From a virus (Duplodnaviria; Heunggongvirae; Uroviricota; Caudoviricetes), in IMG/VR virus record IMGVR_UViG_2565956635_000009, positions 1-25,288 of that record: 25,288 bases of DNA, one strand, 5' to 3'. The notes under the pieces were generated by a model. The model was not told where the DNA came from. It saw only the letters and a program-made list of their open reading frames with translations, and did not search any database. Made by a program: the position numbers and the translations under genes. This document shows, in pieces, positions 19,968 to 22,023 of the stretch (position 1 is its first letter; each line of letters starts with the position of its first letter).

Positions 19968-20267
19968 ATGAACGTTAATCAGCAGAAAAATCTTCAAAAA
20001 ATCATGCTGGCATTCGACAAGGACGACCGCCTGTCAGAACAGCTATATGACCGACAAGTTGAACTGATTGAGAGCATCCGACTTCATCAACTGTCCTCAA
20101 CTTTTGACGTTGTAACAGGCAAAGGCGTTCGTCAGGAAGTACTGGAGGCTGCTAAAGACAGCCCTGAGTTCGAAGAACTGATGGATGCCTATCGGCGAGA
20201 GGCAATGGCAATTATCGCCCGCTGGGATCTGGCGGATCAGCTTGATGGACAGAGGGACGCGGCATGA
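19968..20267 (+). CDS. Hypothetical early protein upstream of the recombination genes (99 aa)
   Basis: ATG at 19968 with GGGAGGG site; stop overlaps the next gene's ATG (ATGA). Positional analogue of gam/abc-type anti-nuclease genes, without sequence support. Confidence 0.5.
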   Translation: MNVNQQKNLQKIMLAFDKDDRLSEQLYDRQVELIESIRLHQLSSTFDVVTGKGVRQEVLEAAKDSPEFEELMDAYRREAMAIIARWDLADQLDGQRDAA

Positions 20268-21085
20268 AACCGGGAATTTATTTCGACATCAGCAACGAAG
20301 ACTACCACGCCGGTGACGGCGTGAGTAAGTCGCAACTGGACATGGTTGCCAAGAATCCGGCGCTTCTTAAATGGGTTCAGGCAGCACCAGAAGACGAAGA
20401 GAAAAAGTCTGCACTGGATATGGGAACCGCATTGCACTGTCTGCTTCTGGAGCCTGGAGAATTCGACAAACGCTTCATTGTTTCACCGAAGTTCGATCGT
20501 CGGACGAAACAAGGTAAAGCTGACGAAGAAGCATTTCTTCGTGATGTAGCGGATATGGGGATTACGGTACTTGATGCCGAGCAGTGGCGGAAACTGGAGC
20601 TGATGCGTGATAGCGCAATGGCTCACCCGGCGGCACGCTGGATGCTGGAAGCACCTGGTTACTGCGAAGCATCAATGTACTGGAATGATGAAGAGACTGG
20701 TGAGTTGTGCCGCATTCGTCCAGACAAATGGCTGAACGAGCACAACGTGATCGTCGACGTGAAAAAGGTTGCAGATATGGACCGTTTTGCACGCCACATC
20801 GAGGAATTCCGCTACCACGTGCAGGACGCAATGTACCGCGAAGGCGCAATGAGGGTTACTGGTCAGCCGCATGGTTTTTTCTTTCTTGCCGTGAGCGAAA
20901 GCATTGATTGTGGTCGGTATCCGGTACGCGTGTTCGAGCTGGATGCGCCGGATGTCGATGCCGGGCACGCTCTGTTCCGCCGGGATCTGAATACCTATCA
21001 CGAATGCCGCATAAATGATGAATGGGGCGGTGTGGAAATCATTAAACGCCCTGAGTGGGCACGCAAACAGGATATGTACATATGA
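20264..21085 (+). CDS. RecE-like PD-(D/E)XK exonuclease (273 aa)
   Basis: N-terminus MKPGIYFDISNEDYHAGDGVSKSQLD is typical of the short RecE-related exonuclease family in enterobacterial prophages as I recall it; translationally coupled to the downstream annealing-protein gene. Confidence 0.6.
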   Translation: MKPGIYFDISNEDYHAGDGVSKSQLDMVAKNPALLKWVQAAPEDEEKKSALDMGTALHCLLLEPGEFDKRFIVSPKFDRRTKQGKADEEAFLRDVADMGITVLDAEQWRKLELMRDSAMAHPAARWMLEAPGYCEASMYWNDEETGELCRIRPDKWLNEHNVIVDVKKVADMDRFARHIEEFRYHVQDAMYREGAMRVTGQPHGFFFLAVSESIDCGRYPVRVFELDAPDVDAGHALFRRDLNTYHECRINDEWGGVEIIKRPEWARKQDMYI

Positions 21086-22023
21086 GCAACGACATCGCAA
21101 ACATCAACGCACCAGTAGACACAGCAATCGCTGGAACTGCTGCAACTATTTTCAGCCCAGACGGCTTGAACCAACTGATGAAATTCGCCGAGGTAATGGC
21201 GCAAAGCCGCGTAACGGTACCGGCGCACCTCGCCGGGAAACCAGCTGATTGCATGGCCGTGGCAATGCAGGCTGCGCAGTGGGGAATGAACCCGTTTGCC
21301 GTGGCTCAGAAAACCCATGTTGTGAACGGCACGCTAGGTTATGAAGCCCAATTAGTAAACGCAGTTATCTCAACGATGTCGCCAACAAAAGATCGCATCA
21401 ACTACGAGTGGTTCGGGCCGTGGGAACGCGTGATCGGTAAGTTTGTTGAGAAAACATCCAAAAACGGCAATCCATATATCGCACCAGGCTGGACTCTAAA
21501 AGACGAAGAAGGCTGCGGTGTTCGCGTATGGGCAACCATGAAGGGCGAGGATCAACCTCGAGTGCTTGAGTTAATGCTGTCTCAAGCACAGGTAAGAAAC
21601 TCCACACTTTGGGCCAGTGATCCGAAACAACAACTCGCATACCTTGCGACAAAACGCTGGTCTCGCTTGCACTGTCCTGACGTAATCATGGGCGTCTACA
21701 CACCAGACGAATTACAGGAAACGGCACCGCGCGTTGAGCGAGACATTACTCCGCAAACGACCACTGCTGCGGGAATGAACAGTCTGATCAACGCTAAACC
21801 AGTGAAAAAGCCTGATGAGCAAACTCGTAAAGCGGATAGCCGTGATCCAGAAGAAATGCTGATGGCCTTTACCAGCGCAGCGATGAATTACAGCACTGTC
21901 TCCGAACTGGATAAGGCTTACAAATACATTGCACAAAAACTTTCAGATGATGACGAACTGCTGGCAAAAGCCACCGACGTTTACAGCGTTCGTCGGGAAG
22001 AATTAAACGAAACATCTATGTAA
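21082..22023 (+). CDS. Single-strand annealing protein, Bet/Red-beta-like (about 313 aa)
   Basis: ATG at 21082 overlaps the exonuclease stop (ATGA) with an AGGA site; segments GMNPFAVAQ, GCGVRVWATMKGEDQPRV and ERDITP resemble lambda Bet recalled from memory. The track start at 21055 is GTG. Confidence 0.7.
   Translation: MSNDIANINAPVDTAIAGTAATIFSPDGLNQLMKFAEVMAQSRVTVPAHLAGKPADCMAVAMQAAQWGMNPFAVAQKTHVVNGTLGYEAQLVNAVISTMSPTKDRINYEWFGPWERVIGKFVEKTSKNGNPYIAPGWTLKDEEGCGVRVWATMKGEDQPRVLELMLSQAQVRNSTLWASDPKQQLAYLATKRWSRLHCPDVIMGVYTPDELQETAPRVERDITPQTTTAAGMNSLINAKPVKKPDEQTRKADSRDPEEMLMAFTSAAMNYSTVSELDKAYKYIAQKLSDDDELLAKATDVYSVRREELNETSM

Follow-up and report, generated by a model that had tools for sequence, protein, structure and literature searches.

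A probable two-component recombinase with a RecE-type nuclease domain and a putatively EHAP1-like annealase in an epsilon15/phiV10-like prophage of Escherichia coli

Phage recombination modules that pair an exonuclease with an annealing protein include Rac RecET and lambda Red, which differ in both gene order and nuclease family. In Rac, the nuclease gene precedes the annealase gene and overlaps it; in lambda, the order is bet then exo, and the nuclease belongs to the YqaJ/lambda Exo family rather than to RecE/DUF3799. Pairs of a RecT-type annealase with a YqaJ nuclease are established in the literature, single-domain homologues of RecE have already been noted, and C-terminal docking of an exonuclease has been demonstrated only for the Redbeta (lambda Bet) C-terminal domain bound to lambda Exo (PMC11611040). 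The EHAP1-like family, reported from E. coli and Salmonella, forms a subgroup of its own among RecT/Redbeta proteins (PMC8093625, citing Iyer et al. 2002); Ehly, a phage protein first named as an "enterohaemolysin", has since been identified as a RecT recombinase (PMC8767327). Here we compare with these systems a pair of adjacent genes in a 25,288-nucleotide stretch of viral DNA, positions 1 to 25,288 of IMG/VR record IMGVR_UViG_2565956635_000009, referred to below as the window. The first open reading frame (ORF), ORF A, encodes a RecE-type nuclease of 273 amino acids (20264..21085, plus strand); the second, ORF B, encodes an annealase of 313 amino acids (21082..22023, plus strand).

The pair is very probably a two-component exonuclease-annealase recombinase (SynExo/EATR) that belongs to the early-left operon of a Uetakevirus prophage of the epsilon15/phiV10 type in E. 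coli and is composed of a RecE nuclease domain and a Rad52-fold annealase from a third, EHAP1-like branch. It shares with Rac RecET a homologous nuclease with identical catalytic residues, the order of two overlapping genes and, presumably, the mechanism. It departs from Rac RecET in the length of the nuclease and in the identity of the annealase, and from lambda Red in the family of the nuclease, the order of the genes and the C-terminal domain of the annealase.

The nuclease and the annealase

By its sequence, ORF A is the RecE-type nuclease domain alone. It aligns without gaps to the C-terminus of Rac RecE over 266 residues at 49% identity, corresponding to RecE residues from about 599 to about 864 and taking in the whole catalytic domain, and it hits the RecE nuclease domain known from a crystal structure, PDB 3H4R, with an E-value of 4.5e-78. 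Pfam model DUF3799 (PF12684), whose cut-off is 26 bits, gives ORF A 79.5 bits, and phrog_412, "exonuclease VIII", matches with an E-value of 1e-126. No similarity to lambda Exo was seen by BLASTP (E 0.11). The 49%-identity alignment to Rac RecE was used to map the PD-(D/E)XK active site, with RecE residue numbers taken from the alignment offset. All four catalytic residues are retained: RecE H652, D748, D759 and K761 correspond to H58 (codon 20435-20437), D154 (20723-20725), D165 (20756-20758) and K167 (20762-20764) of ORF A, with the codons checked on the plus strand. The RecE numbers also agree with those reportedly given by Zhang et al. in 2009.

The region that ORF A lacks is the N-terminal part of RecE. 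The equivalog model for full-length exonuclease VIII, NF007259, scores 312 bits on ORF A against a cut-off of 1269 and aligns over model positions 606-873 only, which indicates that the N-terminal region of about 600 residues is absent; the N-terminal Exonuc_VIII domain, PF06630, gave no match to ORF A in a Pfam scan. An earlier note on this DNA, made from its letters without database searches, had described a short RecE-family PD-(D/E)XK exonuclease at this place, a description that these comparisons bear out. The two frames that it listed are confirmed on the plus strand, and so is the ATGA by which it had linked them. The annealase start codon (21082-21084) shares bases with the nuclease stop codon TGA (21083-21085), giving a start/stop overlap at 21082..21085 (junction letters gtacatATGAgcaac; junction sequence as read, gtacatATGAgc), and a Shine-Dalgarno-like AGGA lies at 21069-21072, 9 nucleotides 5' of the annealase ATG. 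The RefSeq annotation, made by PGAP, gives identical boundaries for both coding sequences in an E. coli prophage at 99.9% identity. This arrangement is consistent with translational coupling of the two genes.

We read ORF B as a member of the RecT/Redbeta superfamily that falls in a separate and large third branch, neither Rac RecT nor lambda Bet. Over residues 37-217, ORF B reaches 152 bits with Pfam model PF03837, "RecT family" (cut-off 24), and phrog_561 matches with an E-value of 3e-147, so that the family matches of ORF B, like those of ORF A, are far beyond chance. In the same library, lambda Bet reaches 115.6 bits with PF03837 and Rac RecT 188.9 bits, and the name of the model therefore cannot tell RecT from Bet. 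The RecT-specific models TIGR00616 and NF007351, which score Rac RecT at 415.7 and 464.5 bits, have no match to ORF B at E<=10, and neither does the Bet-specific model TIGR01913, which scores lambda Bet at 169.5 bits. ORF B, Bet and RecT belong to three separate PHROGs (561, phrog_252 and phrog_148, respectively). Relatives of ORF B number 5498 cluster representatives at E<=1e-3.

Direct comparisons place ORF B roughly equidistant from RecT and Bet, with profile and fold comparison leaning slightly to Bet. Pairwise BLASTP gives an E-value of 2e-4 against lambda Bet and 4.3 against Rac RecT. A hidden Markov model (HMM) built from the ORF B family reaches at best 24.2 bits on Bet relatives (median 7.4) and at best 0.8 bits on Rac-family RecT relatives (median -1.2); in the reciprocal search of the ORF B family with local HMMs, the RecT-family model scores about 0 bits and the Bet-family model at best 7.9. 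By hhalign, the ORF B family profile aligns with Bet at E 8.9e-4 over 138 columns and with Rac-family RecT at E 0.27 over 36 columns. Searches of PDB sequences by phmmer, with ORF B and with the family profile, found no Redbeta or RecT chains, so that sequence alone could not place ORF B, while a Foldseek search of PDB with the full-length model returned 7UJL (Redbeta, E 4.5e-3) as its sole meaningful match and no RecT. The earlier note had called the annealase Bet-like rather than RecT-like and had proposed grouping with RecT or with Red-beta as the check. Separation from classic RecT stands, but the likeness to Bet is faint; by the subfamily models, hhalign and family HMMs, ORF B groups with neither.

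The AlphaFold2 model of ORF B (predicted local distance difference test, pLDDT, 85.5) divides into three parts. The core DNA-binding domain, at residues ~14-213 (21121..21720, plus strand), is modelled with the Rad52-like beta-beta-beta-alpha fold of annealases. It is followed by a linker of low confidence, predicted to be flexible, at residues ~214-255 (21721..21846, plus strand; pLDDT 47-62); the linker holds an ERDITP motif common to lambda Bet, and the BLASTP alignment with Bet spans residues 177-238. A C-terminal three-helix domain, residues ~256-310 (21847..22011, plus strand), has helices at 256-267, 273-286 and 291-310 with pLDDT of about 96. Rac RecT differs in this respect: whereas ORF B carries a linker plus three-helix domain of about 100 residues, the 269-residue RecT, with its Pfam core at 53-244, extends only some 25 residues past the core.

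An orthologue of ORF B in phage TL-2011b, 73% identical and part of the same module, is annotated "enterohemolysin 1", and on this annotation we assign ORF B to the EHAP1-like branch. Among members of the cluster of close homologues, the names are "RecT family recombinase" only, with no Ehly naming.

Partner nucleases across genomes and a natural fusion

One genome per species was scanned, which yielded 414 loci with relatives of the annealase, and the best 80 of the 414 were examined. These 80 span Enterobacterales, Pseudomonas, Vibrio, Aeromonas, Halomonas, Idiomarina and some Betaproteobacteria. Neighbouring nucleases were classed by tblastn, Pfam scanning and clustering. A nuclease gene adjoins the annealase gene in 79 of the 80 loci, with none found in the remaining one. 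The arrangement seen in the window, a short RecE domain encoded directly upstream, is the commonest (33 loci); a long RecE with both Exonuc_VIII and DUF3799 lies upstream in 15 more, bringing the RecE type to 48 of 80, and a YqaJ or lambda-Exo-type nuclease stands beside the annealase in 31. The annealase family naturally partners both RecE-type and YqaJ-type nucleases, and mixing of families is therefore normal here and no sign of novelty. Of 5426 complete E. coli genomes, 564 carry the module.

Several loci of the survey differ from the window in ways of their own. At L034-L055, L059, L065 and L073, mostly from Pseudomonas and also from Idiomarina, the annealase has ~296-304 residues and a different C-terminal tail, and its gene overlaps a downstream gene for a YqaJ-domain protein of ~540-600 residues. 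This annealase-then-nuclease order recalls RecTE_Psy of P. syringae; if the Pseudomonas loci do correspond to it, a member of this family would already have been used for recombineering. The three loci with a lambda-Exo-like downstream nuclease encode proteins of 350-417 residues directly upstream of the annealase gene (L060, 2868-3917; L074, 2464-3714; L079, 2729-3901), and these proteins cluster separately from the RecE-type and YqaJ-type neighbours. On the 666-kb plasmid pAPP145_1 of Pantoea sp. App145 (L033, 3974-5080), the annealase gene has no recognisable same-strand nuclease gene within about 2 kb, and this annealase may be an orphan.

A near-identical relative of the module carries the two genes as one. 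Over 2.37 kb, the module is 99.7% identical in nucleotides to its counterpart in Escherichia phage phiV10, which bears the annotation recET (PhiV10p37), and outside the module the window also matches phages of the genus Uetakevirus. At an AAA run near the 3' end of the nuclease gene (21065..21067, plus strand), DNA alignment shows AAAA in phiV10 and in O157 typing phage 9. The one extra A makes the nuclease frame run into the annealase frame, so that a fused ORF of 586 amino acids results, annotated as a single coding sequence of 1761 nucleotides in phiV10 (L001, 3312-5072) and in typing phage 9 (L086, 312-2072). Of the relatives whose junction or genes were inspected, these two have the fused ORF, whereas E. 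coli KC-Dl-1 and TL-2011b, like the window, have two genes with the ATGA overlap. Because the same extra base occurs in records under three phage names (phiV10 and typing phages 9 and 10), an artefact is unlikely. As phiV10 is itself typing phage 10, there may be only two independent phages. The fusion suggests that nuclease and annealase can work, and may even work better, when joined in one chain. For the window itself, a programmed frameshift at the AAA run was considered and set aside: a slippery heptamer is lacking, and the insertion of 1 nucleotide fully explains the phiV10 fusion.

A second variant affects the annealase alone. The gene of TL-2011b (L005, 2630-3511) encodes a 293-residue allele, 73% identical overall to the 313-residue protein of the window. 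The C-terminal ~110 residues of the two alleles are nearly identical and the N-terminal two-thirds are about 70% identical; the shorter allele lacks some 20 residues, about 121-140 of the window protein, in a beta-hairpin region. This mosaic pattern in the sequence suggests intragenic recombination.

C-terminal tails of the annealases from the 80 loci were also clustered. Under single linkage, all 48 of the 48 RecE-partnered annealases fall in one tail cluster together with 6 annealases that have a YqaJ nuclease upstream. Another cluster is made up of the 18 clustered annealases whose gene is followed by one for a YqaJ protein of ~540 residues, and the tails of lambda-Exo-partnered annealases differ from both. 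Since tail class tracks nuclease class, and by analogy with the Redbeta C-terminal domain and lambda Exo, the three-helix domain of ORF B probably docks the nuclease and/or the host single-stranded DNA-binding protein (SSB). The natural fusion and the co-variation of tail and nuclease lend indirect support to a specific interaction between the partners and to their functional linkage. Homology of the ORF B C-terminal domain to that of Redbeta, raised by weak co-matches to phrog_2449, was rejected: hhalign of the two domain alignments gave E 0.63, which did not improve on the value of a reversed control.

Proposed function and competing explanations

The module is real, and judged from its sequence, the two proteins probably work as a two-component recombinase. 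ORF A would, by homology, be a 5'-3' exonuclease on double-stranded DNA that resects linear ends and leaves a 3' single-stranded tail. The annealase would coat this tail and pair it with a complementary strand, which could be another resected end or the lagging-strand template. The outcome would be recombination of the phage, circularisation, and recombination-dependent replication without RecA, in line with the single-strand annealing, independent of RecA, that is usual for phage recombinases. The ATGA overlap would favour roughly equimolar and co-localised synthesis of the two proteins, and docking of the nuclease and/or SSB by the C-terminal domain would load the annealase as single-stranded DNA is exposed.

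Other explanations of the pair start from its names and its neighbours. Public records call ORF B "RecT family recombinase" and the pair "recET", the PF03837 score is high, the partner is truly of RecE type, and the two genes overlap in the same nuclease-then-annealase order as in Rac; one could take the pair as ordinary RecET in the strict sense, with ORF B the orthologue of Rac RecT and the whole a diverged copy of Rac recET. We consider this quite unlikely. The PF03837 name does not discriminate, as the model also takes lambda Bet, and ORF B is not detectably similar to Rac RecT by any of the finer comparisons above: both RecT-specific models are silent, the BLASTP value is that of an insignificant match, reciprocal family HMMs stay near zero, the hhalign alignment is short, and the two belong to different PHROGs. 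At the opposite end is the proposal, made in the earlier note, of a hybrid and non-canonical pairing, in which a true Bet (Redbeta) annealase has recently recombined beside a RecE nuclease to give an unusual, non-cognate pair. This is very improbable. RecE-type nucleases lie upstream in 48 of the 80 species loci examined, the survey argues against the RecE-partnered members being a single recent offshoot, and phiV10 carries the near-identical module under the name recET. The historical reports of Ehly1 and Ehly2 (cited in PMC6784236) and the "enterohemolysin 1" label of the TL-2011b orthologue would allow yet another account, namely that ORF B is a cytolysin whose position next to a nuclease is incidental. 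Set against its clear annealase fold and family membership, and with no signal peptide or toxin domain detected in a Pfam scan, this account is hardly credible.

Some observations weigh against the reading that we prefer, in which a RecE nuclease domain works with a third-branch, EHAP1-like annealase whose tail takes part in docking. The Bet model TIGR01913 detects Rac RecT and yet misses ORF B, and the placement of ORF B nearer to Bet is weak. Membership in the EHAP1-like branch is well supported but indirect, coming by way of an orthologue's annotation and a secondary citation rather than the founding EHAP1 sequence. The C-terminal domains of ORF B and Redbeta have no similarity that hhalign could find, and the co-variation of tail and nuclease could equally come from shared ancestry. 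A literature search on this pair gave no experiment, only reviews of reporter phages that mention phiV10. A more specific form of the docking proposal holds that the three-helix domain docks RecE-type nucleases specifically and has no sequence relation to its Redbeta counterpart, and that the phiV10 fusion displays a covalent 1:1 working unit; we offer it as a tentative possibility, and a somewhat doubtful one.

Flanking genes and significance

An ORF of 104 amino acids (19953..20267, plus strand) precedes the nuclease gene, and its stop codon forms a second ATGA overlap with the nuclease start, at 20264-20267. Its product has no Pfam and no NCBIfam match and belongs to phrog_856 (E 9.6e-54), a family of unknown function. 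Among the 33 short-RecE loci, this ORF stands immediately 5' of the nuclease gene in 7, which are related enterobacterial loci, and about 300 nucleotides 5' in an eighth (L022); it is missing from most of the others. It probably belongs to the same early-left operon as the recombination genes. An accessory role in the module, for instance in a Gam-like position, is no more than conceivable.

Further upstream, a repressor-like protein with two helix-turn-helix motifs is encoded at 19075-19659 on the plus strand, and a strong terminator-like hairpin (19680-19699, 8-bp stem with a T-run) lies 3' of its gene. The promoter and terminator scan gave a single promoter-like site, TTGACA-17-AATTAT at 19751-19779, which is fewer than expected by chance. 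This site is just 3' of the terminator and just 5' of the small ORFs leading up to the recombination genes; it is suggestive by position alone, its match being no better than chance. The early-left operon likely starts in the region of the terminator and the promoter-like site.

Downstream of the pair, by annotation transferred from a near-identical prophage (L002), the window encodes an AlpA-family regulator (22073-22321), an MT-A70 adenine methyltransferase (22711-23373), a Ser/Thr phosphatase (about 23370-24029) and, on the opposite strand, a tyrosine integrase (24032-25288, minus strand). Flanks of the same kind, with repressor-like helix-turn-helix gene, small ORFs, AlpA, methyltransferase and integrase, occur in phiV10 and its Uetakevirus relatives (the epsilon15 group, TL-2011b, and O157 typing phages 9 and 10). 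There is a small difference in cargo: phiV10 has a DUF1382 gene where the L002-type prophage has the phosphatase gene.

The module is already known. It is annotated in public genomes, belongs to known families and is common in E. coli prophages, and as a discovery it matters little, being a phage recombination pair of textbook type with an annealase subfamily described in 2002. The names "RecT family" and "enterohemolysin 1" mask the fact that the annealase is neither strict RecT nor Bet. The literature search turned up no recombineering use of the pair or of the natural fusion. The residual value of the module lies in the pair and its single-chain fusion as recombineering tools, and in the question of how annealases of this class are brought in by RecE-type nucleases. 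If RecE-specific docking by the three-helix domain is true, recombineering would gain, in the pair or in the 586-residue fusion, a compact enzyme that differs in its properties from both Rac RecET and lambda Red. There would then also be a first starting point for understanding the recruitment of annealases by RecE-type nucleases, in a field where, according to a 2023 review, recruitment is known for Redbeta only.

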